Of a DNA stretch of 50,722 nucleotides, positions 1,357 to 36,559 are shown one piece after another (the stretch's first letter is position 1; each line of letters starts with the position of its first letter). The notes under the pieces were generated by a model. It saw only the letters and a program-made list of their open reading frames with translations, searched no databases and had not been told where the DNA came from. Source of the DNA: a virus (lineage: Duplodnaviria; Heunggongvirae; Uroviricota; Caudoviricetes). The stretch is taken from IMG/VR virus record IMGVR_UViG_3300031992_004563, positions 329,798-380,519 of that record; one strand, given 5' to 3'. The position numbers and the translations under genes were made by a program.

Positions 1357-2601
1357 ATGGAAAAAGATTTAAATAAAACAATATTAGAAACCGTATCTAA
1401 TGCCATATAGTTAGCATTGGATGACTTTGATTACAATGAAACAGATAATCAATTAAAAGATTATATTGAAGCTGATGATTCTACTGCAGATTTTCAACGT
1501 CATCTTGGTCAAACATTAATTACATAGAAAACTTTTATACATGAATTATTAAAACGTTTACCAAATGTAGACAAAAAAATGTTTGCACCATTTGGATTTG
1601 TTAACTATAAAATAACAGGAAATAAAAAAGATTGGCCATATATAACGTCATTAAATAACAATATGGCAGAACGAATTCGTGAAAAATATTAGGAAATGTT
1701 AGACACTAAAGGCTGGACAACATTATCTGGTTCACATACATTTTTTGAATTAATTCTTATTAGAAATGATATATTTAAAAAATATCATATATATGATGAT
1801 AAACAACCACGTGGTCAAGATGCATATAATGCATTTACTTCAAAATCATCATATTGGTTTGATTAGTTTAAAGGAAAATATAAAGAATTTAATGATGCAT
1901 TAGAATTATTAGCATATTATCACCCAAAATTAAAAGAAACAATAAACTTTTGGATAAATTAGATTTCATTATCAAATGATGGTGCATTCATTGCAGTAAT
2001 GTATGATGTATATGATGTAGATCTTAATAAAAGTAAACGAAAAGTTGAAATATTTAGTACATCTAAAATTATTGGTGAAAAAGGAATAGATTTAAAAGAG
2101 GAAAGTACAATTAAACGTAAATAGACAAAATTCAAAAATTATTTGAATAAGATTAATATTTTAGATGAAAAACTTCCAAAATTATTTTCACAAACAACTA
2201 TTAATGGGCATGTTGCATTTAGTGTATCTGCAAATTCTAATATAGATTTTGATTATAGAACACGTTGGCATGCTAGAGCAAATGAAGCATATGAATTATT
2301 TAGAAAATAGTTTGAATATACAAAAACATTTGACACAATTTTATATATTAGTCATTTAATGATTAATTGCTTATATATAGAAGACAAATATCATAATGGA
2401 ATATATGATGAATTACAATCTAATGGTATAAAACCATATATATTAATATCTAGTAAAGATGGAAAATATTTAATGGCATTTTATAATATGTATAAAGATT
2501 ATAAAGAATATAAATTAGTATGTGCAATTATAGATAATACCAATTATGATATAATGCCAAAAGAATATTTAAAAGAAATAGAATATAATCCTATTAATTA
2601 A
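1357..2601 (+). CDS. 414-aa hypothetical protein with ILE..LALDD N-terminal leader
   Basis: Open frame from ATG 1357 to TAA 2601 with 7 in-frame TAG. Starts MEKDLNKTILETVSNAI*LALDDFD and includes track ORF 2359..2601. Confidence 0.8.
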
Positions 2602-2632
2602 AAAAGAGACTCAATTTTAAGAGTCTCTTTTT
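2601..2632. terminator. Bidirectional intrinsic terminator between convergent genes
   Basis: AAAAAGAGACTC-aattttaa-GAGTCTCTTTTT inverted repeat with A/T tails. Confidence 0.8.
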
Positions 2633-2651
2633 AATTATTCAATTTTAATAA

Positions 2652-3533
2652 TTAATCATTAAAATTTTTATATTTTTCTTCTAATGCAGGATCATCATTA
2701 TTAACTTTATCTGTTAATCGTGTTTCTGGATTAATATCAAATGTTGCTAATCTTGGAACACCAAGTAATGTACTATTTATAGTGCTTCCTGGAAGATTAA
2801 TCAAATACATTGGGTCTGGCTCAATTTCATCTGGGTCTGCATCATAACAAACACCATTTGATGCAACAATTGTTAACATTTTGAGATTTCCATCTCCATC
2901 ATTAACTACATTTGTTACTTGAGCTTTCATTCCATTTTCTTTAATAATAACCCAGTCCATAGGTTCATAGATAATTTCTATATTTTCTTTATCTATAACA
3001 GATTCTGATAATTCATTTGCTTCTTCAACTTCTACAGATTCCTATTGAGGTTGTTGCATTGGTGCCAATGGATTATCAACACCTGCTTCAGAAGATAATT
3101 TTTCAACTTTCTTTTCAAATTCTCTTCTATCTTTGGTGCCGTTTGTTATATCAGCCATCTTTTGTGACAATTTAATATCACCATTAGTTGTTAAACCTGG
3201 CTTTTTAATTTTGGCTCTTTCTAATAAAAGCGAATCAATCAATTGATAACCATCTTCTAACAATGAAGTGTTTACATAATCTTGATCCTATTCATCAAAT
3301 GCTTGTAAATCTTCTACAGCATTTTCGTTTTCATTAATAGTATATATCAAATCATCGAAATTACCATAGAAAACTTTATCACCAATTTCATATACAGCCA
3401 TTGGCTCTTTCTGCCTCAACAAATCAAAAATTCCAAAGAATTTAATTGATTCGTTTTTGGCAGATTGGACCTATGTTATTTCAACTGCATTACCTGCATT
3501 TTCTAATGCATATTCATACAATTTGTTTATCAT
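2652..3533 (-). CDS. 293-aa acidic hypothetical protein, probably virion/prohead-associated
   Basis: ATG 3533 joins track ORFs 3042..3263 and 2652..2960 through 3 in-frame TAG. Lies directly downstream of the 1228-aa protein. Confidence 0.75.
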
Positions 3534-3545
3534 ACTATTAATTAA

Positions 3546-6500
3546 TTATTTTTCAGATTTTACATACTCAGCTTTTAATTTCACAAATGCTGCTCTTGCT
3601 TCATTTAATGAAATTTTACCAGATGTTTCAACAGATTCATTTTTTTGTTGTGGTTGTTGTTGATTTTGTGCTGGTTGTTGAGCAGGCTATTGTTGTGCTG
3701 GTTGTTGAGGTTGAGCCTATTGTTGAGGTTGAGCCTATTGTTGAGCAGGCTATTGAGCTGGAGCCTGTTGTTGAGGTTGTTGTTGAGGTTGAGCCTATTG
3801 TTGAGGTTGTTGATTTTGTGCTGGTTGTTGAGCAGGCGCATTATCTTCTGTTAATGATTCTTCTATATTTTCATCTTCAACCCCTGGTTTTGGAGCTTCT
3901 TCTTCAGCTTCATGTTCATCTGTTGCAGATGTGTTGTCATCATTAAAATTAATTTCTTCCTCATTATCTTTAGGTTCTTCAAATTCAATATTATCAGCAG
4001 GCTTATCAATAACTGTATCATCAACTTTATATGTTGGAGTAATTACATCTTCTTCATCTGGTTCATCTTCAACACCTTTGAATAATTCAGATGCTTTTAC
4101 GGCTTTAGGTTCTTCTTCAGTTGGAATTACATCTTCAGCTTTTTCTGCTGGGTCTTCAACTGGAGCAACTTCTGCTGGAGTATCTTCTTTTGCGGTAATT
4201 GTTAATGAACCATCTGGCTCATCTTTAAAATCAAAGTAGCCTTCTTCATCATCCTTTTGAAGTTCATCAGATGCGTTATCAACTGTTTTTGCATCATAAT
4301 AAACATCATCATAATCTGGGAAATCTTTTTCATCTGAATTAAATGTATTAGTTGTTTCTTCTGGATTAGAAGTTACTTCTTCAGCTGGAGCTTCTTCTGT
4401 TGGGATTTCTTCAGTTTTTCCACCTTTGCCTTCAGCATCGGCTTTTTCAAATTTATCATTTGATTGAATTGAAGATACCATTGCATTATATAATGCTACA
4501 GGAATTTCACCAGCTTCAATAACTGGAAGATGAGTTTCTTCATCAATATAGAATTGATATGTTTTAGAATCAGTATATAAAGTACCATCAGCTTTAACCA
4601 TATCAGTCATAATTGCAATATTACCGGTTCTGAATAATTCACCAGTTTTAAGATTTTCATCAAATGCAATATTTGCAATCTTATAACCTTCTGGCATTGG
4701 AACAGACATTTCATTTGATTCAACATCGGTTACAGGATTAACTTCACCTTCATCTTCTAATGGTTCTTCTTCATCTGTTACTACAGGAGATTCTGTAGGT
4801 TCTTCTGTAGGTTCTTCTGTAGGTTCTTCATCATTAAGAACTTCAGCAAATGGATCTTTTTCTGGTGTTTCATCTGGAGTTTCTTCAGATGTTTCATCAG
4901 AAACAGGTTTTTCTAATTCTTCTGCATTTGGCTCTTCATTTTCTTTACCATCGCCATCTAATGCATGATGAGACATATTAACTTCTGTATTATCCATTTC
5001 ATCGCCTGGAACTTCTGAACCACCTTCAAGATATTGGTCAAATTCATCATCAGATACACTTAAATTTCCACTTTCTTGTGATAATGGTGCAGATAAATCA
5101 GCTTTTGCTGCATCTACATCTTCAGCATCAATAGGTTCATTACTCTTTTCAACTTCAGTATTGTCGTCTTGAGTATTTTCAGCATTATCTTCTGTATTTT
5201 CTTTTTCATCATCTTCAGGCTTTTCATCCTTATTATTTTCAGGATTAGTTACCTTATCAACTTCATCTTGCCAATCTTTATATTCTTTCTTAAGTTCATC
5301 AACTTTATTTTGTGCAGCTTCAATAGCAGCATCAAGTTTCTTTTCACTATCTTCAGAAATATCTTCTTCTTTAGCTTTCTTAAGTTTTTCGATTGTAGCT
5401 TCATATTTAGCGATTGATGATTCATATTCATCTTTAGTTTCATTCAATTTCAAGTACATTTTATCTTGAGATGGAATTAAATCTTCAAACAAATATGATA
5501 CATTAATACCCATATGGTTATTAATTAAGTTACGACATTGAATTGGATTAACATTATGATAGAATGTTGCATTTAACATTGCTTCATTAACAGCATTTAC
5601 AAAGATGTTTCCATTTAAATTGAATAAATCAACATGAATGCCTTCATCTTCATTAAGTGCAATATGTTTACCAAAGTTAATATTTGCAATATTATCAAAG
5701 TTTTCTGCTAAACATGATGTCATAATAAAGAAATTATTATCAAAATCATATTTAAGTTGCATATTGCCAAGATCTCTTACAGATTCAATAGATTCTTTAT
5801 TACCATTAATATCAATGTAACTCTCATAAATATTAGCAATCTTATTATTTCCAACTAATGTAATATGGTCTTCATTCATAATTACACGAGGATCATTAAC
5901 TAATTGGCATAATGCAATGAAGTTTTCTGATAATTGTGGAATATATTCTTCTGAAAGTTTAGCAAGAGTATTGCCTTTCTTTACATAGAATTGGCCATTA
6001 GCATTGAATACACATTCATTCTCTTTAATATATTGAACTGGAGAATAGATATTAGATACATTAGCATGTTCTTTAATGAGTTTTGCTCTATCTTTAATAG
6101 TCATTGTAATATCATTTACTAAGAATGATGGTTTATTGTTAAAGTATTCAAGTTCTTCCAACATTGCTTTGCAATATGGGTCACCTGCAAATGAAACTAA
6201 TGCAGCTTTTAATTGGTTGCAATTAATATCTGTAGGATTTTTAATAAATCTGCATGCATCCTCTTCAATTATTGGAATAATATAATATGAATTGGTTGTA
6301 TACATTTCTTCAAGAATCTTAGTAATTGCAATTGAAGATGTATTTTCTTCTGCAACTTTTTCAAGACGTTTAATTTCTTTATCAACAGATTTAAGATAAT
6401 TGAAAGGAGTAATATTTTTAATAAATCCTTCATATAATCTTTCTTCATAAAGACCTTGATTTAAAGCACCTTTATATTGTTCAAGTGTTTCAACCAATTT

Positions 6501-7232
6501 CTTATTAGTTTTTGCATCAGAATTCATAATATTTTTAATAGATTCGCCTAAGCAAATTCCATTAGCATTAACTACATTATCAAATACTAATGCAGAACGT
6601 TCTGCTTCTTCTACGGCTTTCATTTCAGCATATTTCTTTTCAGCATATGCATCAATTTCAGCTTTAGCATCTTCTACTTTTTGACGAAGTTTATCTTCTT
6701 CAATTTTACGTTGAATTTCATTAAATTTAGAAGAATTGTCAAATGTAGAAATTTGTTGTGGTTCTAATTGTGCATTTGGATTAGCAATTACAATTGTTAA
6801 TTGTGGTGCAACTGGATCACCGGATTGTTCCAATACATCTACAGCATTAACTAAAATAGCTTTTGATTTAGCATCATTAGCCGCGAGATAATTTGTATAT
6901 GCATCTTCACACGCGCATTTTGCTGCATCATCACAAATACATTCCATTAACTTATAAGTATTAAGTTCTTTACCATAAGTTGCAAGATTTGCATTCATTT
7001 CATTAATAACATTCTTAACTGCTTTGTTTCCAGATACAAAATTTGAAAGGCCATGACCAAATTCTTCATACAACATAAATTCTTTGGTTGCGCCTTCTGC
7101 TAATACTTTTTGATATTCATTTAAATAATGTGATAAACGTTGATTTGAACCAGCGTTTGCCTCAAGCAAAGTATTAACATAAGATTGAATCTTAAAGTTG
7201 TCTAAAACAGCTTTTGTTTCTTTTTTTGCCAT
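3546..7232 (-). CDS. 1228-aa large acidic protein, possible prohead core/scaffold-type structural protein
   Basis: Track ORF 3795..7232 continues through 5 TAG in a Q/P/A repeat to TAA at 3546-3548 (...QQKNESVETSGKISLNEARAAFVKLKAEYVKSEK). Coiled-coil segments and a very acidic C-half. Function is inferred only from composition and context. Confidence 0.7.
3645..3837 (-). repeat. Coding Gln/Pro/Ala low-complexity tandem repeat
   Basis: Units such as CAA-CAA-CCA-GCA, CAA-CCT-CAA-CAA-TAG-GCT and CAA-CAG-GCT; TAG alternates with CAA/CAG at equivalent positions. Confidence 0.9.
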
Positions 7233-7299
7233 AAATTTTTCTTTTATTTTTATATGTTTTTATTATAGTTTTTTCACTATTTTATTATTTATTATTAAT

Positions 7300-7328
7300 A
7301 AAAATGGCCACTTTTAATAAAAAGTGGC
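7300..7328 (-). terminator. Intrinsic terminator after the gp15-like gene
   Basis: GCCACTTTT-aata-AAAAGTGGC hairpin followed on the minus strand by a T-run. Confidence 0.65.
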
Positions 7329-7361
7329 ACAAGTTATTTAATATCAATTAACTAGCTGTAG

Positions 7362-8768
7362 TTAAAATACGTTTATAAATTCATCTTCATCCTAAAAAGC
7401 TGCCATAATTTCAGGTCTATCATGGTCTCTGATAAATAATTGAATCTTTCGAGATTCTATTTCTTTAGGATATATAAAGCATTCCATTTCAATAGGGCGT
7501 TCAGTGTCTAATGCACCATTTAATATGTTTAATTTAATATTTTGTTCTTTTATTTCATCATTAAATTCATATGATAACACTGCATCAATCTATGTTTTTT
7601 CTGTCTAATTGTTTAATAAGAAACATCCTTTGTTAATAACTACACATGTATCTTCTGTTATTTGTCTATTAGGTAGTGCATAAAATTTGATTTCCGGCTG
7701 GCTAACTATCATAATATCATCATCCTATGGAATAATAATATCTATTTCAGGACTATTAACAAAGTCACCAGAAATACTCATATGACAACAATTATGGTTA
7801 TCTATATTATTTAGTATAGTATGGTATGTAGTGTCTCCAAATTCCTTATATAAAATATCAACATATAAAAGATCTGAATAATTATAAAAATATGACCATT
7901 TTAATAAAATATTTTCTAAAGCAACAATATTCATTTTATCAATATGTTCTGCTTCAATATACCCATTTTCTTTTATAGTATCTTTGTCATTTAATGTTGT
8001 TTTATCCTATAATGTTATTCCTCCACTAAATCCTTTTATATTTCTTTCTGCTGGCATTTCTGTATATGGATCAAATACCGGTTGATACGTTTCACATTGC
8101 AAACCAAAACTTAATTTAACATCTGCACCATCTTTTTGTTGAGCACCCATAGTATAATTAGCAGTTTTATTTTCCGTTAATGATTCTGGAAAACCAATTC
8201 TGCATGGAACAATTGTTCCTTTATAATTAATATGGAATGTTTTGTTTTTATAGAAAAATTCTCTGTAAGCTTGTTCTATTTTCCACATTGTGTTGACAGT
8301 ATCACAAGCAATATTAACAGTAAAACTCATTGTTAATGGAATAGAATAAAGGCAGGCAACATATGGTTTTAATTCTCCATTAATTCTTTTTTGAAATTGA
8401 CCCATAACAAATCTGTTAGAAATATTTCCTGATTCGATATTAGTTGAATCTAAAGAAATGACACCATAAGGAATTGGTTTATAATCCCCATTCACTTTTT
8501 TGATTCCCATTGAAGTGCATTCATCATCTGTCCAATTCATATAGTTATCTTGAATAAACTTTTCAGATGTGCCAGAACCACCAGAAAAATCAAAGAAAAA
8601 TGGAACTGTAACTTCCTATGTTCCTTCTTCAGTATCTTCCCAAACTTGAGTGTATTTCAATTTTTGATTAAGAACACGAAGAACACCCATAATTACAAGA
8701 CGTGAAAAAACATCTGAAGTATTTCTATTTTCATACAATTGTTTAGCAGTTATCTATGTTTTTGACAT
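7362..8768 (-). CDS. gp15: Tail terminator/sheath stabilizer (T4 gp15-like) with C-terminal extension, 468 aa
   Basis: ATG 8768 to TAA 7362 through 7 TAG, joining track ORFs 8007..8540, 7725..7934 and 7392..7580. Motifs VPFFFD..G...EKF, IPYGVISL, YS.P.T.SF.V.I and TYQPVF are typical of gp15-like proteins. Confidence 0.65.
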
Positions 8769-8807
8769 TATATATAAAATACAATTTTATTATTTATTAT
8801 GCAAAAT

Positions 8808-8837
8808 AAAAGGTACCTCTTTTTTGAAGTACCTTTT
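8808..8837. terminator. Intrinsic terminator
   Basis: AAAAGGTAC...GTACCTTTT inverted repeat between co-directional genes. Confidence 0.55.
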
Positions 8838-8844
8838 GCTTATA

Positions 8845-9312
8845 TTAATATGAATCATCAAAGAATGAATGTTTAATAGTTTCATCTGTTCTAAAATCTA
8901 TATATACAAGTTGAAATTCCCATGATACTTTACGATGTCTTTCTAACCATGGATACAGACCTTCTTCATTTGCATAATCTGCTATTCTATCATAATCATC
9001 TTTATTAATATATATATTTCCCAATTTATCCTGTATACCATATATTTTAACTATACCCCATAATCCAGATCCTAATAATGCATCAAGTTTTTTATTACTT
9101 TTATTTGTTAATAAACTTGGTATTTTATAAGTACCATCAAGTTTTAACCAACCATCTTCAATACCTTTTTTCATTTCTACATATGACATTAATTTATTAC
9201 TAAATATAAGTGTATCTTCAGGATCAATATCCTCGTTCAATGCCTTCTTAACTTCTTTAGCTACTGAAGCCATGATGCTTTCATATAAAGCTTTTTTATT
9301 ATCTTTTTTCAT
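8845..9312 (-). CDS. 155-aa hypothetical protein with MKKDNKKALYESIM...ALNE leader
   Basis: Intact ORF; leader shared with four other genes in the window. Confidence 0.85.
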   Translation of the reverse strand: MKKDNKKALYESIMASVAKEVKKALNEDIDPEDTLIFSNKLMSYVEMKKGIEDGWLKLDGTYKIPSLLTNKSNKKLDALLGSGLWGIVKIYGIQDKLGNIYINKDDYDRIADYANEEGLYPWLERHRKVSWEFQLVYIDFRTDETIKHSFFDDSY

Positions 9313-9329
9313 ATATTTTTTATTATTTT

Positions 9330-10250: not shown

Positions 10251-10256
10251 AAAAAA

Positions 10257-10514
10257 TTATTTTCTTATTTCCCAATTCACTCCAAATTCTGCCATTTTTC
10301 TTTTAGCAGATTCTAAACCATCTTTAAGACCTACTTTATACCACTATTCTTCTCTTTCAGTTTCAAATGAATACGGCTCAACTACATGCATTTGCTCAAT
10401 TTCATCTGCATCCATTATATATTCGCGTTCTGGAGTATTTTCATTTAATGCCTTTTTAACCTCTCTGGCTACTGATGACATTATTGATTCATATAATTTT
10501 TTCTTCTTTTCCAT
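10257..10514 (-). CDS. 85-aa hypothetical protein with KKLYESIM...KKALNE leader
   Basis: MEKKKKLYESIMSSVAREVKKALNENTPERE...; one TAG; ends TAA 10257; absent from the ORF track. Confidence 0.8.
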
Positions 10515-15876: not shown

Positions 15877-17832
15877 ATGATAAATTTTATTCCTGATGAA
15901 GAAATTAGAAATGATTTAAAAATATTAAATGGTGCACCAGATGTTCAAACAAAACGTGAAATTGGTGCAAAATATGGGTTATCTCCAAAAGAATGTACAC
16001 AATGGAAGCATGTTGCACAAAAAATATATGAATATTTAAGAACTGTTAGAAATTAGAAAACAGACTTCACAAAATAGGATGTTTCTGATTTTTATCATTT
16101 AACAGATGATGCTCAAAAATATGATAAAATATATCCATTTTTATTATTAGAATCAAGAGCATTTATTGAATATCTATTAAATCATATATACGCATATTTA
16201 ATTGCTAAAGGAGTTAAACAATATACATTAGATCATATTGACACTGTTAGATTAACCCGTGACATATATGGCAGCGCTGCAAATTTATTTCATCTTGAAA
16301 GATACAAATCAATTAAAAAGTATTATGATGAGCATTATGGCCATAAATAGTCATAGGCTCAAAGTAATAACAAATTATCTATTGAATTATAGGGGTTATT
16401 CATAGAAGAAACATATGAACAAAGAATGCAGCTCGAGCAGATTTTAGAAAATTTTATTAATGAATGTTATGATACTTATGTTTATGGAAGTTCTGAATAT
16501 ATAAAAATTTATAAATTAATGAATTCATATATTGAAGAGCGTGATAAATTAAGTGGTGGAAAATATCGTCCAAGATTACATGAATAGTTGCCGCCTGAAG
16601 TTATTAAGCTTAATGGATATATTAATGAATTACATTTATTATTATATACATATAGATATTTTTCACCAGATTGTTCTGCAACAACGCATATAACAAAAGA
16701 AAATAGAATAGAAAAATCAATTGAATATTTTAATAAAGTTTTTGATAAAGCTCTTAATAAAAGTGTTATTAATAAAATTATTTCATCAAATGATTTAACT
16801 GATATAAATGATATAAAAATTAGTGAATTATAGAAATCTGATTTTGGATATTATTTTATTATTTCATATAATGATAATAAAATATATCTTAATTTTGGTT
16901 TGCAACATGAAAATCAAAATATTGATAACATGGATGATCTTATTAAAAATTCAAGACATGTGCAACATTTAAATTACACAACATTAATATACGAAATAAA
17001 AGTTACATCCAAATTATATAAGAAAAAAATAAATGAATCATTTGATTTTAATAGTTTAAATGAGAATGAAATTCATTTAAATATTGATGATTTTAATTTT
17101 AATGATGAAAATCATAACGCAGATTCAAATATCATTGATGATGAAGATGTCATTAAAACACATATAGATTTTTGGAATTAGTTTGTTGATTTAGGTCTTC
17201 CTTCAGGCACATTATGGTGCAAATATAATTTAGGTGCAAAAATTGAGAAAATTGATTATAAAGATTGGCTGGGTGATTATGTTCAATGGGGTGATATAAT
17301 TCCAAATACTGCCAAAAAAACAGGATATTCATATGTATGGACAACATACAAACATTCAAGAGGAGCAACAAATATGTTAAAAAAATATATTACTGATACA
17401 GATTATAGCGCAAAAAATCCAGATAATAATTATCATCCATACTTAGATAATTTAACAAATCTTCTTCCAGAAGATGACATTGCAACATAGGAACTTGGCG
17501 AATATTTTCATATTCCAACTAAAGAATAGTATGATGAATTACTAAAAAATACAGAAACTTCATGGAAAATCAATTACCAAGGAGTTAAATGGCTAGATGG
17601 CAGAATTTTTAAAAGTAAAATAAATGGTAATGAAATATTTTTCCCGGCAGCAGGTGTTAGAAAAGAATTAAATTTAAATGGGTCTGGTGATATAGGTGAA
17701 TATTGGACATCATCATTAGATGAAGCATGTAATTCATTAGCTCATGTCTTTCATTTTAAAGATGGAAGCTATTTTATAGGAACTGATCCACGAGCACTTG
17801 GACATAATATAAGACCAGTATTTAATAAATAA
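15877..17832 (+). CDS. 651-aa protein with C-terminal Fib_succ_major-like (C-type-lectin-fold) domain
   Basis: One frame, ATG 15877 to TAA 17832, with 10 TAG, joining track ORFs 16588..16833 and 16900..17181. C-terminal domain has VDLGLPSGTLWCKYNLGA, FFPAAG, YWTSS and NIRPV. Confidence 0.82.
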
Positions 17833-17833: not shown

Positions 17834-18655
17834 ATGAATATGAAAAATTATAATAAACATATATTAGAAGCTGTTCATAAAGGTATATAGTTGGCATTAG
17901 ATGACTATAATGATAATGAAGATATTATTTATACATCAACAATGCCAGATATTGCTGGAAATGATAATATGATAGAAGATACTATAGATTTTTATGTGAA
18001 TAAAGTTGATTTAGGACTTCCATCTAGAACATTATGGTGCAAATATAATGTTGGTGTTAATATGCATGAATTAAATGATGCTGAAGATTGGGGTGGCAAT
18101 TATTATGCATGGGGCGAAATATACCCAAAAAGATCATATGGATTTTTTAATTATGAATATTCTAAGTATAATGAAAATCAAACCGAAGACGATTTAGATG
18201 TATTAACTAAATATTGTAGTGATTTCAATTTTAGTCATGATATGACAACAGACAATTTAGTTGAATTGGAAAGAAGTGATATGCCAATAAAATTAAAATT
18301 ACGTAAAGGTGACAATATAAACAAATATTCAATGCCGACTTATGATCAATATAATGAATTAATAAAATATACAACATCTAAATATGTTAAAAATTATAAT
18401 GGAATTATTGGATTAAATGGAAAATTATTCACTAGTAAAATAAACAAAAAATCTATATTTTTCCCAGCTGTTGGATATATGAATGATAATGAACTTCATT
18501 ATGATGCAATGCAGGGTGGTTATTGGACATCTACTGTAGTTAAAGGCATGGATGTATGTGCATGGACATTTTAGATACATAAAAAATCAGATACATTAAT
18601 AGAAAATAGTAGAGTTGTTGGATTTCCAATACGATTAATATATAATCAAAAATAA
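17834..18655 (+). CDS. Leader + Fib_succ_major-like domain protein, 273 aa
   Basis: MNMKNYNKHILEAVHKGI*LALDD leader; VDLGLPSRTLWCKYNVG, FFPAVG, YWTST, FPIRL; 2 TAG. Confidence 0.85.
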
Positions 18656-26042: not shown

Positions 26043-26462
26043 TTATTTTAATTCAATATTTAAATAATTTGCAACTTTAATTAAAAATTTATTTGCGGCT
26101 GTAAGAGCATTTATCATTTTATTTAAATCAATATTATTATAAGCCACTCCATTTTCCCACTATATATTTATGCTTTTTATATTTTTTCTATAATTTGTAT
26201 AATCAATATTAATTGTAATTCCAGCCTAATATGCATTTGAATTATAAATAGTATCAACCTTATATCCAACACAATCATATATACCATTAATTACTATATC
26301 CTATTTTACAAGCATAAAATTATCATCGCTAAATACTTTTTTCTTAGGTCTATAATACGTTATACGATCATCACTATAATTTTCATTTAACGTTTTCTTT
26401 ACTTCTCTAGCAACAGAAGTCATGATGCTTTCATATAAAGCTTTTTTGTTATCTTTTTTCAT
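26043..26462 (-). CDS. 139-aa hypothetical protein with MKKDNKK leader
   Basis: MKKDNKKALYESIMTSVAREVKKTLNE...; 3 TAG; TAA at 26043; TATAAATA at 26471-26478 upstream; absent from the ORF track. Confidence 0.82.
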
Positions 26463-26483: not shown

Positions 26484-27422
26484 TTACCATGTTGTTTTTT
26501 TACCAGACTTAATCATATCAATAAAATATTGTTTATCTTCTCTTGGGCAAGGTTGATTAACTGCATCCGTATATCCACAATGCCAAGCCATCCACTGAAC
26601 TAATTCATTAAACTATTGTTTAGTATTATAATGGATATGAAGTTTATATGAATATCTTCCTTCTTCAATTTTTACATTCATTTTATGATTAACCAACCAT
26701 TTAACATGATTTTCAGCTGCTGCCATTCCATCACTAAATTCACCTGGTTCATAATTATCTTTTGAATATATGAAATCAGTTGTAAAATCGCCTTCCATTG
26801 GTTCTTCTCTAGTAATTTTTTCACCGGTTTTTCTCATTATAAGATTAACATCCATTTGAATTCTTCCTTCTGGTGTGTCTTTCCATAAACCTGTAGCATC
26901 AAGCGCAGCTCTAATTGCTTCTGGAGTTCTTTCCATTTCACCATTATTAATCTTTAATATAATATCTAATTTTGCTGGTTGTTTTGGTGTCCAGAATTTT
27001 TTAGGATCCATATATTGACGAGCAATTCTAATACGTTCTGTATCTTCTTTAGCTTCATTTACAGAATCATTTACAGAAATTTTATTAACTTTTTGAATTG
27101 CAATTCTTGGCGCTTGGCCTAATGAATTATCAACATCTAATACATTTGCATTAACTAATAGAGCAATAACTTTAACAACTTCTTCATGTGTTTTGCATGT
27201 AATTCTTACAGACCCTGCACCATAATTATCAAATGCTGGTAATTTGCTAGATAATTTATCTAATACAGATTTATTCATACCATCGCATCTAACTAAATAT
27301 ACTTCACCTGCAATTTCTTGTTTTTTAGGCTCAATATCATCAACTTCATTTAAAGATTGCTTAACTTGTTTTGCAACCTATTCCATTATCTTATTATATA
27401 AATCTTTATTATCTTTTTTCAT
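26484..27422 (-). CDS. 312-aa hypothetical protein with MKKDNK leader variant
   Basis: MKKDNKDLYNKIME*VAKQVKQSLNE...; extends ORF 26613..27278 at both ends through TAG to TAA 26484. Confidence 0.8.
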
Positions 27423-27439: not shown

Positions 27440-27745
27440 TTATGCAGGCTCTATCATATCTTTTTCGCCTGGGCCGTACCATTTATCTATAAGTAATTCA
27501 ACACCATCTCGTGGTCCAATTATTTCAACTTGGCTATAGCCATGAATTTTTTCAAATGAAACTTTGCAACCAAATTCGCCAGCATCTTTAATGAATTCAG
27601 CAGTATCAGATGGTTCATCTTCAACAAATTCTCCACAATATTTAACCATTGGAGATGCTTCGCCTTCATTTAAAGCCTTTTTAACTTCTTTAGCGACAGT
27701 TTGCATTATGCTTTCATATAATGCTTTTTTGTTATCTTTTTTCAT
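27440..27745 (-). CDS. 101-aa hypothetical protein with MKKDNKK leader
   Basis: MKKDNKKALYESIMQTVAKEVKKALNEGEASP... Confidence 0.85.
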   Translation of the reverse strand: MKKDNKKALYESIMQTVAKEVKKALNEGEASPMVKYCGEFVEDEPSDTAEFIKDAGEFGCKVSFEKIHGYSQVEIIGPRDGVELLIDKWYGPGEKDMIEPA

Positions 27746-27838: not shown

Positions 27839-29509
27839 ATGAAATTTAAAAGTATAGAATGGAAAAACATTAGATCATTTGGTGAAGAAATTCAAAGAAT
27901 TGATTTTAATGATGGTGAATTAGTTTTATTAAAGGGAATTTCTGGTTCTGGAAAATCTACAATTCTTTCATTACCATGCATTGCATTATTTGGAAAAACA
28001 CCAGGTTTGACAAAATCTGCTGTACATAATCGTATTAATAAGCATGGATGGGTAAAAGCTGTTATTGAAAAAGGTGGCCATGAATATGTTATTGAACGTT
28101 CATTCACCCCTAATGATTTACAGGTTTTTCGTGATGGTGTTAATATTAATTCATATGGAACATCTTCTGCACAGGATTATATTGATAAAGAGATTGCAGA
28201 TATTCCAATTAAAGCATTTTCTAATATGATTTCTATTTCTATGAAGAAATTTAAATCATTTTTAACAATGTCTCCTGCAGATAGAAAAGAAATTATTGAT
28301 AGAGTATTTAATCTTGAAGTTGTTAATATTGCATATGAAAAAATAAAGAAAGATGCTCGTGAAATTGGAAATATGATTAATTCTAATAATAATTCATTAT
28401 TTCAATTAACACAAACTTTAAATAATGCAACCTTTGAATTAACAAAGCTTCAAGAATCTGATAAATCTTCAGAGAATCAAGCTACTATTAATGCTAATAA
28501 TATAAAGATTCAAAAAGATAATGATAATATTAAAAAGCTTACAGATGTATTAACTGAACATACTAAAAAACAAACTGATGCATCTAATATCATTAATTCT
28601 ATCAAACAACAACAATATGAGAATAACTATAATATTCAAGTTATTCAGCAAAAAATAAATCTTTATTCACAAGATAAATGTCCTACATGTGGTATGTCAT
28701 TTTCATCTGAGTCTATTAAAACTTTAAAAGGACAACTTGACAATTTATTAAATCAAAAATTAGAAATCACTAAAGATCTTGAGAAAAAGGCAAAAGATGC
28801 AAATAATGATTATAATGCAATTACTGAATATCTTGGAAAATTAAATACTGCAATTTTCCAATTAAATTATGATATTCAACAATTGACTGCACAAAATAAT
28901 GCATTATCTGAACAGCTTAAACAATCTGCAGAATATCAAGGAATTAATAATATCATTAATAATACAACAACTCAAATTAATGATATTAAAACGCAGCTTG
29001 AAAAAGATTCTGCTAAATTAAAAGAACTTCAAATTTTAACAACTGTTTATTCTATTGATGGTGTTAAACAAAAAGTAATTGTAAATTATCTTCCTATTTT
29101 AAATAAAGAAATTGCAGAAGGATTAGAATTAGTTAATTTCCCATATCAACTTGAAATTGATATGAAATTTGAACCACATCTTAAAGAACTTGGAGTTGAA
29201 TTGACACCAGAATCATTATCAGATGGTGAAGAAACACGAGTTGATTTAATAGTTCTTTGTAGTTTATTTAAATTATTGAAGAGAAGATTTCCATCAATTA
29301 ATATATTATCTATTGATGAAGTTTTATCTTCACTTGACAATGAAACGTCTGGAATGGTTCTTGATTTCTTAAGACATTTTGCGCAAGAAAATAATCTTAG
29401 TTGTTTCATTGTTTCACATACAGATTTATATCTTGATAATTTTAATAAGATTATCAATGTTGAGAAAAAAGGTTTTTCAAGAATTGAAATAACAAAAGCA
29501 ATTAACTAA
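27839..29509 (+). CDS. gp46: Recombination ATPase subunit (gp46/SbcC/Rad50-like)
   Basis: GISGSGKS Walker A, CPTCG zinc hook, LSDGE signature, SIDEVLSSLD Walker B and VSH. Confidence 0.93.
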   Translation: MKFKSIEWKNIRSFGEEIQRIDFNDGELVLLKGISGSGKSTILSLPCIALFGKTPGLTKSAVHNRINKHGWVKAVIEKGGHEYVIERSFTPNDLQVFRDGVNINSYGTSSAQDYIDKEIADIPIKAFSNMISISMKKFKSFLTMSPADRKEIIDRVFNLEVVNIAYEKIKKDAREIGNMINSNNNSLFQLTQTLNNATFELTKLQESDKSSENQATINANNIKIQKDNDNIKKLTDVLTEHTKKQTDASNIINSIKQQQYENNYNIQVIQQKINLYSQDKCPTCGMSFSSESIKTLKGQLDNLLNQKLEITKDLEKKAKDANNDYNAITEYLGKLNTAIFQLNYDIQQLTAQNNALSEQLKQSAEYQGINNIINNTTTQINDIKTQLEKDSAKLKELQILTTVYSIDGVKQKVIVNYLPILNKEIAEGLELVNFPYQLEIDMKFEPHLKELGVELTPESLSDGEETRVDLIVLCSLFKLLKRRFPSINILSIDEVLSSLDNETSGMVLDFLRHFAQENNLSCFIVSHTDLYLDNFNKIINVEKKGFSRIEITKAIN

Positions 29510-29523
29510 AAAATACTAAATAT

Positions 29524-30285
29524 ATGGAAACAAAATTGATTGAACAAAAAATTAAAGTTTCTGGATGGAATGAAATATATGAAACAACTATCAAATATCC
29601 AGAAGATTTAGAGTTTTATTATACTGCTGATGAAATTGGCAAATGTAAGCATATTGAATGTGAGCATTATTATGCAATTTTTGAAAAATCTAGATATTCT
29701 GAAGAGATTATTAACAAAATTGTAAATAGTACAACACATATATCAAAACGAGAATTTGGTGATTATATTATTTTAACAGTTACTGAAGTCCATAATGATA
29801 CACCACTTCCAAATATTAGTCGGGATGAATATTTCAAAAAATATAATATTGATTTTTCAAAATACACCGCAGTATTATATACAGAAGATATGTATGTTGC
29901 AAATCTGGCTAGAATTGTTAATTTTAAAAACCCATATAGAATTGATACATTAAGTATCACTACAAAAAATTTATATGATAGTTCACGAAAAATTTTACAA
30001 ATGGGAAAAGATACAATTGAGCTTTCTGCAATGATGCTTGATACATCTTCACAAACTTTTTCTAAATATAAAGTAGAAATTCTCAATAATAATGAAGATG
30101 GTGATATTGTATGGAATATTGCATTACGTAATGCTATGAAAGAATTTGGTTTTAACCCAGATATTTTAGATCATGTCGAAGATGAATCTAAATATGATTT
30201 AGATTTAAAATATGAAAAAGTACATGAAGCAATTAAATTATGGAATAAGATAAAAATTGAACAATTAGAACAAACAGATATGTAA
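29524..30285 (+). CDS. Hypothetical protein
   Basis: Intact 253-aa ORF. Confidence 0.8.
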   Translation: METKLIEQKIKVSGWNEIYETTIKYPEDLEFYYTADEIGKCKHIECEHYYAIFEKSRYSEEIINKIVNSTTHISKREFGDYIILTVTEVHNDTPLPNISRDEYFKKYNIDFSKYTAVLYTEDMYVANLARIVNFKNPYRIDTLSITTKNLYDSSRKILQMGKDTIELSAMMLDTSSQTFSKYKVEILNNNEDGDIVWNIALRNAMKEFGFNPDILDHVEDESKYDLDLKYEKVHEAIKLWNKIKIEQLEQTDM

Positions 30286-30464
30286 TGGAAACAAATGATT
30301 TAAATTATTTTAAACAAAAAATATATGAGATTTCTGGAGTTCCAAAATCTAGTTTAGAAAAAATTGAAGAAGAATCATTGACACGAGATGAAGCTATGAT
30401 TGAACGCAAATTTGAAAAATTCATTGAACACTTAATTAAAACAAAAAGTAATAAAAACATATAA
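30285..30464 (+). CDS. 59-aa protein resembling a short segment of T4-type portal protein
   Basis: METNDLNYFKQKIYEISGVPKSSLEKIEEESLTRDEAMIERKFEKFIEHLIKTKSNKNI. ATG overlaps the previous TAA; below the ORF-track cutoff. Confidence 0.65.
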   Translation: METNDLNYFKQKIYEISGVPKSSLEKIEEESLTRDEAMIERKFEKFIEHLIKTKSNKNI

Positions 30465-30490
30465 TATAAAATAAAAATTATCAAAATTAC

Positions 30491-32530
30491 ATGGCAGTTT
30501 ATAAGAGCAAATTTATAGAAATTGATCCAGATACTTGTTCTAAAGAAGAACTTTATGAAGCTATTAAAAAATGTGAAAATTTATCAGGTTATTATGAAAC
30601 CAAGCAACTTGCAATTAAAACATTTATTAATAGTGTATATGGTGCAACGGCTAATAAGTATTTCGTTGGTTATAATGTGGCTGTCGCAGAATCAATTACG
30701 CTTCAAGGACAGGATTTAAATCACTATTCAGAGAACTGTGTTAATAAGTATTTTAGAGGAATTTTTCAATCACAAGAAGAATATAATAGAGAAATTTATG
30801 TTCCATTATTCGAGTGGATGGAAAAATATGATATTGAAACAGCTAATGATTTTTATGCAAAAAATCAAAATAAAGAATGGGTTTTAATTAAACTTCCAAT
30901 TGATAAAGATATTATTAAGGGTGGGAATATTAATGAAGACACAAAGAAATTATTGAAAAAAGTTTTCGTTAAAACTTCATTTGGACAATATCTTGGAGAG
31001 CCTTATGAAAAAATAAAAGGATTTGAAATTAATAAAGGGAAAATAACTCCAACAATTCCATTGAATACTTTTGCATTAAAAGCAAAAAATTCATTAGATT
31101 CAAAAGAAAATCCATTTGCATATATGGGAAAAACCTCTTATTTGGAAGATGACCCAAGTTGTAGTATGACCGTTGCTGGTGATACGGATAGCGCAATTTC
31201 TTCAACAAAAATCTATTTAGATGATTTTCAAAAAACTATAGAAGATGCATTTATCAAATGTAAATTAGAAAATTTTGATATAGTTTTAAAACTACAAAAT
31301 GGCCAAGAAGTTGTTCCAGTTAAAAATCATACAACAAAGACAGTAGATCCAAATACATTGGAATTAATTGATAGGCCTATTAATTATATAATGAGGCACA
31401 AAGTTTCAAAATCTAAATTCAAAATTAAATCTGAATCTGGAAAAGAAATTATAGTTACAGGAGATCATTCATGTATGGTTTATAGAAATAATGAATTAAT
31501 TTCAATTAAAGCAAAAGATATAAATCCAGAAACAGATAAATTGGTCGAAATTATAAAATTACAAACTAAGCTTTCAAATATAAAATTAGTTGAGCAGCTT
31601 GAAGATTTTCAAGATGAATATGTTTATGATATTGAGGTAGATGATACACATACATTTTTTGGAAATGATATATTAGTGCATAATTCAATTTATGTAGAGT
31701 TTGGTCGTATTACAAATTATCTTAATATAATGGATATTTCAAAAGCCACAAGATTTATTGTTGATATGTGGAATTATGGTTGTGGACCATATATGAATAA
31801 ATGTTATGATGATTATGCAAAGAAATATAATTGTGATGTTAATCTTCAAAATCTTGAGCTTGAAAAAGTTGCTGATACAGCAATTATGACATCTAAAAAA
31901 CATTATGCAATGTCAGAATGTTTTAAAGAACCAAATATCTATTTAACACCTGGTGAGGAAGTTATTTATAAAGGTTTGGAATTAATTCAAGGTTCAACAC
32001 CTCCATTTGCAAAAGAATGTCAAGATAATTTTATGAGATATGTTATGAATTGGTATGCAACTCATACAACATCTCCTGAATTTGATGATATTTTTGCGCT
32101 TCTTAAGAAATATAAAGAAGACTTTATTAAACAAAACCCTGAAGATATTTGCAAAGGTGTATCAATTTCTGATTATGGAAAATTTATTTTAGATGATAAA
32201 AATAATTTTGTATTTGGAGAACATTGCCCAATCCATGTTAAAGCTGCAGGAATTTATAATTTCATTTTAAATCAAGAAAAGAATAAAAAATATAAAATGA
32301 AATATGAATCTATTAAATCAAGAGACAAAGTAAAATTCTATAAAACAACAGATCCTAATTATCCAGTATTTGGATTTGTTCCTGGAAAATACCCATTAGA
32401 ATTTGCATTACCAATGGATTATAATCAACAATTTGAAGATTTGGTTTTAGCACCATTAAATAGAATTATTGAAATTCTTGGGTATCAACCTCTTACTTCG
32501 GATTTATGTTATGTATCATCTTTATTCTAA
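30491..32530 (+). CDS. gp43: Family B DNA polymerase, C-terminal subunit (fingers/palm/thumb), intein-containing
   Basis: Motif B KTFINSVYG, ESITLQGQ, motif C AGDTD^S, KKHYA and YKGLELIQ. Confidence 0.9.
   Translation: MAVYKSKFIEIDPDTCSKEELYEAIKKCENLSGYYETKQLAIKTFINSVYGATANKYFVGYNVAVAESITLQGQDLNHYSENCVNKYFRGIFQSQEEYNREIYVPLFEWMEKYDIETANDFYAKNQNKEWVLIKLPIDKDIIKGGNINEDTKKLLKKVFVKTSFGQYLGEPYEKIKGFEINKGKITPTIPLNTFALKAKNSLDSKENPFAYMGKTSYLEDDPSCSMTVAGDTDSAISSTKIYLDDFQKTIEDAFIKCKLENFDIVLKLQNGQEVVPVKNHTTKTVDPNTLELIDRPINYIMRHKVSKSKFKIKSESGKEIIVTGDHSCMVYRNNELISIKAKDINPETDKLVEIIKLQTKLSNIKLVEQLEDFQDEYVYDIEVDDTHTFFGNDILVHNSIYVEFGRITNYLNIMDISKATRFIVDMWNYGCGPYMNKCYDDYAKKYNCDVNLQNLELEKVADTAIMTSKKHYAMSECFKEPNIYLTPGEEVIYKGLELIQGSTPPFAKECQDNFMRYVMNWYATHTTSPEFDDIFALLKKYKEDFIKQNPEDICKGVSISDYGKFILDDKNNFVFGEHCPIHVKAAGIYNFILNQEKNKKYKMKYESIKSRDKVKFYKTTDPNYPVFGFVPGKYPLEFALPMDYNQQFEDLVLAPLNRIIEILGYQPLTSDLCYVSSLF
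31190..31684 (+). mobile_element. Mini-intein (165 aa) in polymerase motif C
   Basis: GDTD|SAISST...VTGDHS (block B T-x-x-H)...VYDIEVDDTHTFFGNDILVHN|SIYV. No LAGLIDADG domain. Confidence 0.9.
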
Positions 32531-32560
32531 AAAATAGAAGCAAGTTTGCTTCTATTTTTT
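32529..32560. terminator. Bidirectional intrinsic terminator
   Basis: AAAAAATAGAAGC-aagttt-GCTTCTATTTTTT. Confidence 0.8.
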
Positions 32561-32568
32561 ATTATCTA

Positions 32569-32588
32569 TTTTGAAACGCGTTTCAAAA
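32569..32588. other. Perfect 20-bp palindrome (8-bp stem/4-nt loop hairpin or cruciform)
   Basis: TTTTGAAA-CGCG-TTTCAAAA, 31 bp downstream of the stop of the minus-strand Fib_succ_major-like gene. Confidence 0.85.
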
Positions 32589-32619
32589 TGTATTCTTGTT
32601 TTGTCATGAGAAGGTAAAA

Positions 32620-33360
32620 TTACTAAAAAACTGGACGAACATTAAATCCATTGTAACGAATACTGCCATTTATATAAACTCCTTCTTCATTGAAATATAA
32701 GTGCATAGCGTAGTTAGGGTAGTCAGTATAAATACTAGAAGACCAATAACAGCCTTCTACACCAACGCTGTTCGAAACGGATTTACTGCAGTAACCAGCG
32801 GCTGGTAAGAATATATATTTAGAAGAATCTAATTTATTAATAAATTTATAACCATTTACACCACTGCCATTAAAATTTCTTACCCATTTATTATTAGTTT
32901 CTTTAATTAATTCTTCAAAATCTGCTTTAGTAGGCATATGGAATTTAAAATTATATAAATACATATTCTAATAAACTGGATCATCCATAAATTGAAGTTC
33001 AGTTAAATGGTCTTCTTCATTATATTTAATTAAATCTTCATCAAATTGGTATGTTTTCCAATTATATCCATCAGGCTTGTTTGGAATAATTTCGCCCCAA
33101 GCGTAATAATCTCCATACCAATCTTCTGGCTTAGATAATTTATTAGGATCTACACCTAAATTGTATTTGGCCCATAATGTGCCTGATGGAAGACCTAAAT
33201 CAACTGTATACTTATTTAGTTCTATTTTATTTTTAATTACATCACTAGTATTAATTACATCACTAGATACAGAACTATTATCTTCCATATCTTCATAATC
33301 ATCAAGTGCCAACTAGATACCTTTATCAATAGCTTCTAATATTTGTTTATAATTTTTCAT
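32620..33360 (-). CDS. Leader + Fib_succ_major-like (CLec-fold) protein, 246 aa; candidate DGR target
   Basis: MKNYKQILEAIDKGI*LALDD leader; VDLGLPSGTLWAKYNLG, FLPAAG, YWSSS, RYNGFNVRPV; 3 TAG then TAA 32620. Confidence 0.85.
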
Positions 33361-34083
33361 TTAATTTCTATTAAATTTAGGTCTACAAAATATTGGGAAT
33401 TTTGAAATATTATCTGCAAATCCTCTATAAAATTCAACGCTTGATACATCCCAATTGGAAATATCATGTGACATATTAGATTCACAAAACATGTATTCCA
33501 TATCTTTAACACCTGAAACATCCCACTATGATAAATCCTAATTAAAGCTATGGCATTTATAAAACATATATGACATATTTTTTACAGATGAAACATTCCA
33601 TTTTGAAATATCACAATTAAATCCAATGCAATTTGAAAACATACCTTTCATTGTTTCAACATGAGATACGTCCCATCTAGAAACATCAAAGTTAGTTGTT
33701 ATATTCATACGATAAAATAATTCTGACATATCAGTTATATTAGATACATCAATCCAATTTAAATCTGCATTTGCATCTATTGTTGCAATATATGTAATAA
33801 CTTTTTTTAAAACATCTTTATTTGAAAATTGGTATTGAAATCCATATTTATTTGATAACTGTGCTAAATCTATTAAATCATTTTTTGTTAATTTAACTTC
33901 AAATAAATGTTTAATAGTATTATCAAATTTATCTTTTTCTATTTTATTTTTAATAACATCCTTTACATCGATGATATCACTCTATTGAGATATAGATTTA
34001 TTATCTTCCATATCTTCATAATCATCAAGTGCCAACTAGATACCTCTATTGACAGCTTCTAATATTTGTTTATTAATATCCAT
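33361..34083 (-). CDS. Leader + DUF285/BspA-like repeat protein, 240 aa
   Basis: MDINKQILEAVNRGI*LALDD; ADLNWIDVSNITDM; repeats FNxDISxWDVSxVxxMxxMF with TAG at the FNQD position. Confidence 0.85.
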
Positions 34084-34918
34084 GATCTCTTACTATTGAT
34101 GGTATATATTTCTTTTTTATATTACAATCATCAAACATTCCTGATGTTCTTGCTTTCAAATCTATATTCCAATTTGAAATATCCTAATTAAAACTATGTG
34201 CATCTCTAAACATGCAATTAAAATTATTAACTCCTGATACATCCCATTCTGAAATATCTTGATTAAATTGAGTATTATATTCAAACATATATCCCATATT
34301 CAATACATTGCTGACATTCCAATTTTTTATAGAGTCATTGTTAAAAAATGATTCTGCGAACATTGAAAACATATTAGAAACTTTAGAAACATCCCATTTA
34401 GAAAGATCACCATTAAATCTGCAATCTCTAAACATTCCTTCCATTGTTCTTACACTTGATACATCCCATTCTGAAATGTCTCCATTAAAATTAGGTGCAT
34501 AATTTTTGAATAAATTACTCATATCAATAAGATTAGATACGTCTAACCAATTTAAATCAGCATTATTATCTATTTTACATAAAAATTTAATTACATTACA
34601 TAATGTTTCTTTTGCAGTAATTGGATATTTATACCCAAACATTTTAGATAAAGATGCCAATTCACTTAATAATTCTTTAGTTAATCCTCCATATAATTTA
34701 TCAGATATTCTATTATTTAATTCTATACTATCATGATATCCAACATAAAACATTTTTAATAATTTTTTATGTCTAATTTTATCTGCAATACAATCTCTAT
34801 TAATTGTAATAATATCATTAGTTGGTTTTGATTCTTCATTATCATTAAAATCAAAATCATCTAACGCCAACTAAATTCCTCTATTGACAGCTTCTAATAT
34901 TTGTTTAGTTAATCTCAT
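34073..34918 (-). CDS. Leader + DUF285/BspA-like repeat protein, 281 aa
   Basis: MRLTKQILEAVNRGI*LALDD; five to six WDVS-type repeats; both FNQDIS (CAA) and FN*DIS (TAG) occur. Confidence 0.87.
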
Positions 34919-34929
34919 TAAATTTAATT

Positions 34930-35691
34930 TTATGGGAATTTTGGTTTATATTCATCTTTTATTGGGCATCCATTTTCCCATATTAATTGTTTATCTACCA
35001 CATTGGCAACATTCCAATTTGATATATTCTAATTAAATTCTTTATTAGAATAAAACATCATTTTCATATCCATTACATTAGATACATCCCATCTGCTAAT
35101 GTCATTATTAAAACTTGAATATTCAAACATTTGTTCCATACTTTCAACATTAGATACATCCCAATTAGAAATATCTCCAGTAAATGGACAATCATAAAAC
35201 ATACCAAACATATTAGTTGCATTACTTACATCCCATTTTGAAATATCACCATAAAATTGTTTTTGTGCAAATAATGTTGAAAAATCAGTAATATTAGAAA
35301 CATCTATCCAATTTAAATCTGCAAAATTATCAACACCATCCACATATACACCATCCACGGGCTATTTACCAACAATGTAATCAATAATCTATTGTAATTG
35401 TTCTTTAGTTTTAACTTTATATTTTATTCCTGTATATCTTGAATATATTTTTATCCATAAAATATCAGATATTGACATTTTATTAGTCGCATCAAATTTT
35501 TTATTTTCACTGAATGCTTCTTTTTCTAATCTACTAATTAATAAATGTAATTTATGTCTAAACTCAATATATTGATGATTAACATCAATAACATCAGATT
35601 TAGGTGTTGATGATTCTATATCTTCAAAATCATCAAGTGCTAACTGGATTCCTCTATTAATAGCTTCTAATATTTTATTATTTTTCATCAT
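34930..35691 (-). CDS. Leader + DUF285/BspA-like repeat protein, about 253 aa
   Basis: MMKNNKILEAINRGIQLALDD; joins track ORFs 35389..35721 and 35029..35358 through TAG; start could be 35688, 35691 or 35721. Confidence 0.82.
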
Positions 35692-36559
35692 CCTCTTTAA
35701 TATTTTTAGGTTTATACTCATTTTTTATAGGACAATCATCAAACATATATTCGGTGTTTTCTTTATTTTTTATTTTCCAATTAGATAAATCCTAATTAAA
35801 TGATGATGCCTATAAAAACATTCCACTAAAAATCATGCCATTAGAAACATTCCATTTTGATAAATCCTAATTAAATTTAGATGCTCCCCAAAACATTGCA
35901 CCAAAATTTTTAACATTAGATACATTCCAATTTGAAATATCTGAATTGAAATTTTTGCATCTACAAAACATCTATTCCATTGTTGTTACTTTAGATACAT
36001 TCCATTTTGAAATATCTCCAGCAAATGATGCCAATATATCATTTTTTGCGACTCTTGCACCTATATCATAGAATAACATTCTCATATCAGTAATATCAGA
36101 TGTGTCTATCCAGTTCAAATCACAATCTGGACCATATTTCTTTATTGCTTCTTTTAATAGATTTTGTAAGGCTTGTTTTGATTTAACTTTTCTATAAATT
36201 GTTGTAAATAATGCAATATTTTTTTCATACTTTGCTTTTAGCTAGTCATCTAAATGACTTTCTAATTTATTATCATGCATATATCTAATAATATAATATT
36301 CCTCCATAGTCATATCTATTAATGATAAATAATGCTCAAGATTCTTATTTATAATTTTATTTGCATTTGGACTAAGAGAATTAAGATCTTTCTATTTAAT
36401 TGCCTTTATAAACTAATAATCTAATAAATCACCAGCGCCTGTATTGATAGGCAAATGACTTGTATTTGTATCTAAATCATTAATATCATCTAACGCTAGC
36501 TGAATCCCTTTATTAACCGCTTCTAATATCTATTTTGATAATTTCACAACTAAAACATA
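35678..36559 (-). CDS. Leader + DUF285/BspA-like repeat protein, about 290 aa
   Basis: (MFLV)VKLSK*ILEAVNKGIQLALDD; KYGPDCDLNWIDTSDITDM; WNVS repeats; 8 TAG; start ATG 36559 or GTG 36547; absent from the ORF track. Confidence 0.82.

Follow-up and report, generated by a model that had tools for sequence, protein, structure and literature searches.

A family of 30 genes in a Lak-like gut megaphage of ∼500 kb shares one N-terminal leader in front of a few recurring cargo domains, and this leader is a separable module kept by protein-level selection. The genes lie on a single phage contig of 380,519 bp (IMG/VR record IMGVR_UViG_3300031992_004563; GC 28%; completeness ∼76% by CheckV). Seven of them are found in the window, by which we mean the whole stretch considered here: 50,722 nucleotides, positions 329,798 to 380,519 of the record, the final 50.7 kb of the contig. 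The explanation that we tentatively favour, by analogy with T4, is that the leader proteins are loaded into the prohead and would be delivered with the DNA into the next host; the virion destination, the position in the head interior and the cleavage of the leader are what we infer.

All translations were made with TAG read as Gln, and many open reading frames in the window become fused once this is done; the CAG at the IQL position of gene 35691 supports this decoding. On this basis, the pattern M-x(3-8)-ILE[AT][VI]xx[GA]IQLALDD[FYI], which a preliminary description of the window had assigned to seven genes, is indeed present in all seven, and a six-frame pattern scan of the window returns exactly these. 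TAG occurs in six of the seven leaders, as had been stated: five times at the Q of IQL and once at KQ-ILE, gene 35691 being the one with CAG. Two points on the genes had to be amended. The start of the seventh gene had been placed at 36559, where the codon is Tyr in that frame, and the GTG at 36547 (MKLSKQILE...) is the most likely start. The cargos had been called unrelated, which is overstated: they fall into DUF285 repeats in four genes, C-type-lectin-like/FISUMP-like domains in two and an unknown domain in one. The seven genes are the following.

1357..2601, plus strand: leader (diverged) and an alpha/beta domain of unknown fold, 414 aa.
17834..18655, plus strand: leader (nt 17834-17911) and a C-type-lectin-like (FISUMP-like) domain, 273 aa.
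32620..33360, minus strand: leader (nt 33360-33292), neck helix and C-type-lectin-like domain, 246 aa; last of the five-gene island.
33361..34083, minus strand: leader (nt 34083-34015) and DUF285 repeats, 240 aa.
34073..34918, minus strand: leader (nt 34918-34850) and DUF285 repeats, 281 aa.
34930..35691, minus strand: leader and DUF285 repeats, 253 aa; begins MMKNNKILE at 35691.
35678..36547, minus strand: leader and DUF285 repeats, 289 aa; GTG start at 36547, first gene of the island.

The four DUF285 genes of the window score 122-148 bits with Pfam PF03382 (cut-off 25; E 1e-35 to 1e-43), and TIGR02167 (PARCEL repeats) is reached at 51.7 against a cut-off of 30. The two lectin-like genes match TIGR02145 with E values of 4e-6 and 1e-3, both below the cut-off (best 27.6 bits, cut-off 41.65), and Lcl_C (PF07603) at 19.6 against 34.9. 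In gene 1357, the leader spans residues 1-25 (nt 1357-1431, MEKDLNKTILETVSNAIQLALDDFD) and a disordered linker comes next. Its cargo matched no Pfam, PHROG or NCBIfam family, gave no fold match (best Z 4.0) and found nothing below E 0.001 in BFVD. This gene is conserved, single-copy and near the major capsid gene, and its orthologue in a 491-kb relative lies ∼2.7 kb from the gp23 gene.

How large is the family? A whole-genome scan with a profile hidden Markov model (HMM) of the leader had been proposed together with the preliminary description. Run with 27 columns against the six-frame translation of the 380,519-bp genome, it gave 30 matches in three cargo classes with E ≤ 2.4e-10, the next match being at 0.24; the copies lie in about nine clusters and were recovered again by an independent search. 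Clustering assigns 18 of the cargos to the lectin-like class and 10 to DUF285, leaving the unknown domain of gene 1357 and a 38-aa fragment; one of the 10 DUF285 genes is a tandem fusion with a degenerate second, internal copy of the leader. A plausible start codon is present at 28 of the 30 copies. The 16-residue core of the leader shows 83% pairwise identity, compared to 37% in the cargos within a class. Outside this genome, the leader profile matched 255 clusters among 1.84 billion representative proteins, nearly always at residue 1; the best 150 of these comprise 80 lectin-like, 29 DUF285, 37 short fragments and 4 small other cargos. As for the 38-residue fragment (genome 21783-21943, minus strand), its frame stops and then continues in another frame as a lectin domain; it is a frameshifted member of the family or an assembly error.

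The shared unit covers ∼50 residues and consists of helix 1 (consensus MKNYKQILEAVNRGIQLALDDF), an acidic disordered linker and helix 2. The latter is lineage-specific, DIIDSEDVIKQKI here and VQNIKSKQVQNRDYTKEYLDLM elsewhere, and within a lineage it is the same for lectin and DUF285 cargos. The AlphaFold2 model of the lectin protein (63-sequence alignment, pLDDT 88.6) has a helix at residues 3-23 with pLDDT 65-71, disorder at 25-36, a helix at 38-51 and then a confident domain, and ∼12 linker residues with pLDDT below 50 separate helix 1 from the cargo domain. The same layout is predicted for the gene 1357 protein: a helix at 5-22 and low confidence up to residue 43. Since the leader is modelled detached from its cargo, it qualifies as a separable module, and the proposal of a separable tag stands in two cargo classes, each with a helix, a disordered acidic linker and an independent domain. 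The leader alone has no Pfam or PDB relative; its TALE-repeat matches were dismissed as 9-residue chance matches. The lectin domain finds the Lcl C-terminal domain (Z 7.7), Bd2740 (Z 7.4), TvpA (Z 7.3) and Mtd (Z 6.7), together with TaqVP, FGE-type and many C-type lectin domains (Z 5-7.7 overall, VIA search); Foldseek searches of the PDB with the same model gave nothing clear.

Selection on the protein is seen in the codons of the leader, where identity is 0.88 at positions 1+2 and 0.65 at position 3, and where synonymous sites are free to vary in the codons for Ala, Val, Gly and Leu. The positions before ILE are the most variable, with entropies of 1.2-2.6 bits. I, E and L-A-L-D are invariant (the Glu of ILE in 30 of 30 copies), L, A, G and D nearly so, and the residues G, L, A, L and D lie 5-11 residues after the Glu.

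In the explanation that we favour, this module would couple swappable binding domains (C-type-lectin-like, DUF285 and one unknown) to one conserved partner late in infection. Helix 1, which is amphipathic, bears an h-x-E motif and the invariant LALDD[FY] core, and the partner would most likely be part of the assembling prohead. The proteins would then be packaged into the head and reach the next host alongside the DNA. A gp21-type protease may cut after the Glu of ILE/A (the slash marks the putative cut), turning the uncut N-terminus MKNYKQILEAVNR into a product starting AVNRGIQLALDD.

Timing is the first line of evidence. TAG is present in 29 of the 30 leader genes, and TAG-containing genes have been described as late in Lak phages (PMC6784885). 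An ATAAATA-type motif lies just upstream of the leader genes that come first in a cluster, including the first gene of the island (36547), while the others abut the preceding stop. From these features the leader genes are predicted to be of late type. To act early in the next host, a late-made protein has to be packaged, and late-made binders, together with a binder-linked NTP-using enzyme, make most sense as cargo of the particle.

The second line comes from the head genes. With regard to these the phage is of T4 type, encoding both a gp21-type prohead protease (Peptidase_S77, PF03420, 59.7 bits) and a gp23-type major capsid protein (PF07068, 74.8 bits), both above cut-off.

Genome 225969-227790: gp21-type protease with a long acidic scaffold-like tail fused to it.
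Genome 226011-226600: Peptidase_S77 protease domain.
Window 277..2, minus strand: N-terminus of the gp23-type capsid protein.

Some leader genes adjoin such genes, namely the capsid gene, the protease gene and those for scaffold-like acidic proteins.

The third line concerns copies of the module that are not N-terminal. At genome 101250-102512 (minus strand), a Pol-beta nucleotidyltransferase is fused to a lectin domain, with a leader-like module between the two. Fusions of this nucleotidyltransferase-module-binder type are conserved in Lak-like genomes (22 clusters, 21 with lectin and one with DUF285), and their internal module keeps LALDD[FY] and the lineage-specific linker. In these internal copies the Glu is invariant (23 of 23), P3 is L, I or V and P2 varies (I, M, S, L, N, Y), a combination that suits a cleavage site; a one-residue shift between the h-x-E and LALDD motifs suggests that the two act separately. 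The invariance of h-x-E, internal copies included, supports head loading when taken with the T4-type head genes, and the decay of the internal copy in the tandem DUF285 fusion is as expected of a tag rather than of a fold element. That module and binder are fused to an enzyme that uses NTPs speaks for an action of the binder domains in a cytoplasm. A free nucleotidyltransferase in a lectin cluster was considered as the counterpart of the fused one, in the Rosetta-stone sense, and was rejected because no similarity is detectable.

What does T4 itself teach? Its capsid-targeting sequence (CTS) is carried by IPI/IPII/IPIII, Alt and gp24 and is removed by the gp21 prohead protease (PMC9026906, PMC8442874). 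Targeting depends on residues 4 and 7, which precede the cut, and processing on residues 8 and 10 (PMC9026906); more generally, T4-family proteases cleave after the Glu of a short motif (PMC5694885). In the T4 record, the tags read MKTYQEFIAE/A (IPII, IPIII), MAKINELLRE/S (gp24) and MELITELFDE/D (Alt), P3 being hydrophobic and P1 Glu, and ILE/A fits the same rule. The likeness to the leader family extends over several features: an N-terminal tag on otherwise different late proteins (here a short peptide on 30 genes of three cargo classes), the presence of a gp21-type protease and a gp23-type capsid protein, and a hydrophobic-x-Glu followed by a small residue, as in MKNYKQILE/A here and MKTYQEFIAE/A in T4. 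Cargo genes are variable in both, T4 internal proteins being polymorphic (PMC9026906, PMC5694885), and in both the gene content of the cargo loci differs among relatives.

A second precedent is offered by SPN3US, whose heads contain a 20-member paralogue family and which has a gp21-related protease; in the paralogues gp53 and gp54 the first 15 residues are identical and include cleavage motifs (PMC5694885). The head families of SPN3US and phiKZ resemble the leader family as large paralogous sets in giant phages with a gp21-related protease. They differ in sequence, which shows no relation, in their propeptides, which are mostly over 100 residues, and in that virion proteomics exists for them.

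Several observations weigh against head loading. The T4 comparison that had been drawn for the leader is real at the level of the h-x-E motif, but the leader is not a peptide of ∼10 residues informative before the cut, as the invariant GIQLALDD follows ILE. The strongest conservation (GI.LALDD) lies downstream of the putative cut and the upstream residues are variable, the reverse of conservation before the cut; the conserved unit is ∼50 residues long, compared to 10-19 in T4; and a conserved fusion holds the module at an internal position. ILE is replaced by ILK in three orthologues of gene 1357. T4 internal proteins are small and basic, while the leader proteins are acidic binding domains. 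Lectin folds and DUF285 repeats are modules typical of adhesins; among the fold matches are Mtd and Bd2740, the tips of a tail fibre and of a fibre, and the adhesin Lcl.

The last of these points is a second leader family in the same genome. Genome-wide clustering of N-termini revealed ∼15 genes that begin with M-K-K-D-N-K-K-A-LYESIMxSVAKEVKKALNE, about ten of them elsewhere in the genome and five in the window, all on the minus strand:

8845-9312, minus strand: [LI]NE-leader gene.
10257-10514, minus strand: [LI]NE-leader gene.
26043-26462, minus strand: [LI]NE-leader gene.
26484-27422, minus strand: [LI]NE-leader gene.
27440-27745, minus strand: [LI]NE-leader gene.

The similarity within this family ends exactly at [LI]NE, and the bodies beyond are unrelated. 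The capsid protein contains two copies of this motif within its first 60 residues (MINE/A and SLNE/A, kept in a relative), and in the protease/scaffold protein it is 7-fold enriched, at 0.99 versus 0.13 per 100 residues. [LI]NE is the likely protease motif of this phage, and the family that carries it is the closer analogue of the T4 tag. Both leaders are N-terminal helices on otherwise unrelated late genes of one genome. They differ in charge, the [LI]NE leader being basic (+3) and the other acidic, and in cargo, that of the [LI]NE family being diverse with only one DUF285. This one is a 717-aa protein (genome 270245-272395, plus strand) with an [LI]NE-type leader; near its C-terminus, a 42-residue stretch is 52% identical to capsid residues 67-108 (E 1.7e-7). 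Perhaps this megaphage lineage uses two address systems: a cleavable T4-like [LI]NE leader that would load diverse proteins into the head, and a non-T4 docking module, LALDD[FY], that would place a combinatorial set of ∼30 lectin-like and repeat binders at a second site of the particle. We regard this as possible, if rather unlikely. Were it true, the phage would encode a swappable "binder library" with its own docking standard.

Could the binders be on the outside of the particle instead? Here, the helix would anchor them to the capsid lattice, the tail or the fibres through the flexible acidic linker, and the virion would carry a coat of ∼30 different adhesins, lectin-like or built of repeats, with which to bind the host or mucus. 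Among the fold matches of the cargos are the tips of adhesins and receptor-binding proteins (Lcl, Bd2740, TvpA and Mtd), the collectin and tetranectin alignments to the model begin at the neck helix, and NCBIfam names DUF285/PARCEL repeats as surface proteins. In addition, the invariant part of the leader would stay on the mature protein, the separate [LI]NE family is available for head loading, and the binder cargos pair almost only with the ILE leader. A design in which a linker joins a short, conserved anchor at the N-terminus to a variable binding domain, in many variants per genome, is familiar from T5 pb10 and the multi-spike proteins of jumbo phages, and the leader family is like them in this respect. 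However, no homology to those proteins was detected, and the leader proteins are much shorter than fibre proteins. The nucleotidyltransferase fusion is also hard to place outside the cell, the invariant h-x-E with its variable middle residue looks like a protease site, a shaft or trimeric fibre region is lacking, and the fold matches are middling (Z below 8). Adhesin-typical folds and an invariant helix kept on the mature protein make surface display a strong rival, although on balance we consider it unlikely. Many jumbo phages have DUF285 proteins, and virions of the giant virus AaV were shown to contain two (PMC7507832).

A further possibility is that the module never reaches the virion: inside the infected cell, the helix would dock binders on a common hub, of the phage or of the host, or would let paralogues pair with each other, and the binders would act late, for instance in targeting the nucleotidyltransferase or blocking host factors. 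The module serves as an internal connector in the nucleotidyltransferase-binder fusion; a free N-terminus is therefore not required. The helix is amphipathic, with the 3-4 spacing of hydrophobic residues read from its sequence, and leader islands sit among replication genes. What would ∼30 binders, expressed late under TAG gating, do in the cytoplasm? No late role there is evident, and some members adjoin the head genes named above; docking of this kind is improbable. A predicted complex of three copies of the leader (window 35512-35691, minus strand) scored 0.02, with partner pLDDT under 50, and favours none of the readings. A likeness of QLALDDF to clamp-binding or PIP-like motifs was considered and dropped, as its last positions misfit and the Q is Lys in 7 copies.

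Very improbable is a purely nucleotide-level role, in which the TAG at codon 16 would block translation until suppression, and gene conversion would keep the copies alike. At the Q of IQL, TAG is used in 20 of 23 Gln copies, compared to 38% of the Gln codons elsewhere in the same genes (binomial p = 1.8e-6), but the copies share ancestry, and the p-value for this reason overstates selection on TAG. The ILE codons ATA-TTA-GAA are near-fixed at synonymous sites (30/30, 29/30 and 28/30), whereas elsewhere in the leader the codons for Ile and Leu vary, and neighbouring genes share an identical 47-nt block. On the other side, the Ala, Val, Gly and Leu residues stay fixed while their codons drift; the gate position (for example, window 33315-33313) is Lys in the seven copies just mentioned and CAA or CAG in three; TAG is mutationally trapped (TAA is a stop, CAG is rare here); and a gate would not need 16 conserved residues. 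ATA-TTA-GAA is also similar to ATATTGAA, which is part of the motif preceding the cluster-first genes.

Least credible is the view, raised in the preliminary description as a counter-possibility, that the leader belongs structurally to a single folded domain common to these proteins: in the lectin class, helix 38-51 lies against the domain in the manner of a collectin neck, but AlphaFold2 models the leader apart from the cargo, with helix 1 at low-to-middling confidence and a low-confidence linker before the cargo in both models, the same helix heads three unrelated domains, and the tandem DUF285 fusion has a decayed internal copy.

How did so many copies arise? The block shared by neighbouring genes, reported as ∼45 nt, measures 47 nt; it lies at 33276..33322 in the lectin gene and 33999..34045 in the DUF285 gene, both on the minus strand, and covers GIQLALDDYEDMEDN. 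The shuffling of leaders and cargos deduced from it is borne out to the extent that three or more unrelated domains here, and a few small ones elsewhere, carry the same leader, and that the concerted evolution of the second half of the module extends over the cargo classes; whole-gene duplication, however, gave rise to most of the 30 copies. As for distribution, the leader profile found no match in the complete genomes of Lak-A1, Lak-B2, Lak-B6 and Lak-C1 or in LR756500, while in the home genome this search returns the full set of 30. Because the leader is absent from the four Lak genomes under a search that finds 30 at home, the family appears to belong to a sister lineage related to Lak, whose contigs measure 484-491 kb. 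No description of it was found in the Lak literature searched for paralogues, lectins and N-terminal features.

Some observations concern the surroundings. The two halves of the family-B DNA polymerase are encoded by separate genes whose order is swapped, with the C-terminal half lying upstream:

30491-32530, plus strand: polymerase half.
36689-38224, plus strand: polymerase half.

The five-gene leader island lies between these halves on the opposite strand, and the same site in a close relative holds four genes. Gene 17834 begins 2 nt past the stop of a 651-aa protein (window 15877-17832, plus strand) that has ten TAG codons and a C-terminal lectin domain of the same family, without a leader; its N-terminal 450 residues match no family. 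The idea that the lectin-like genes are targets of a diversity-generating retroelement was dropped, as no reverse transcriptase (RVT_1) match exists in the 380-kb record, which, being ∼76% complete, leaves absence from the whole phage unproven. Position 1 of the contig is the ATG of a leader gene (MKNYNKILEAVNRG...), so that the assembly may have broken inside repeated leader sequence.

If the leader is an address tag, it gives a sequence rule with which to list the proteins in or on the particle of an uncultured phage of ∼500 kb, and a short portable tag to load or display proteins on very large capsids would be a useful tool. For the phages themselves, it would mean that they expand one docking standard into dozens of exchangeable binders.

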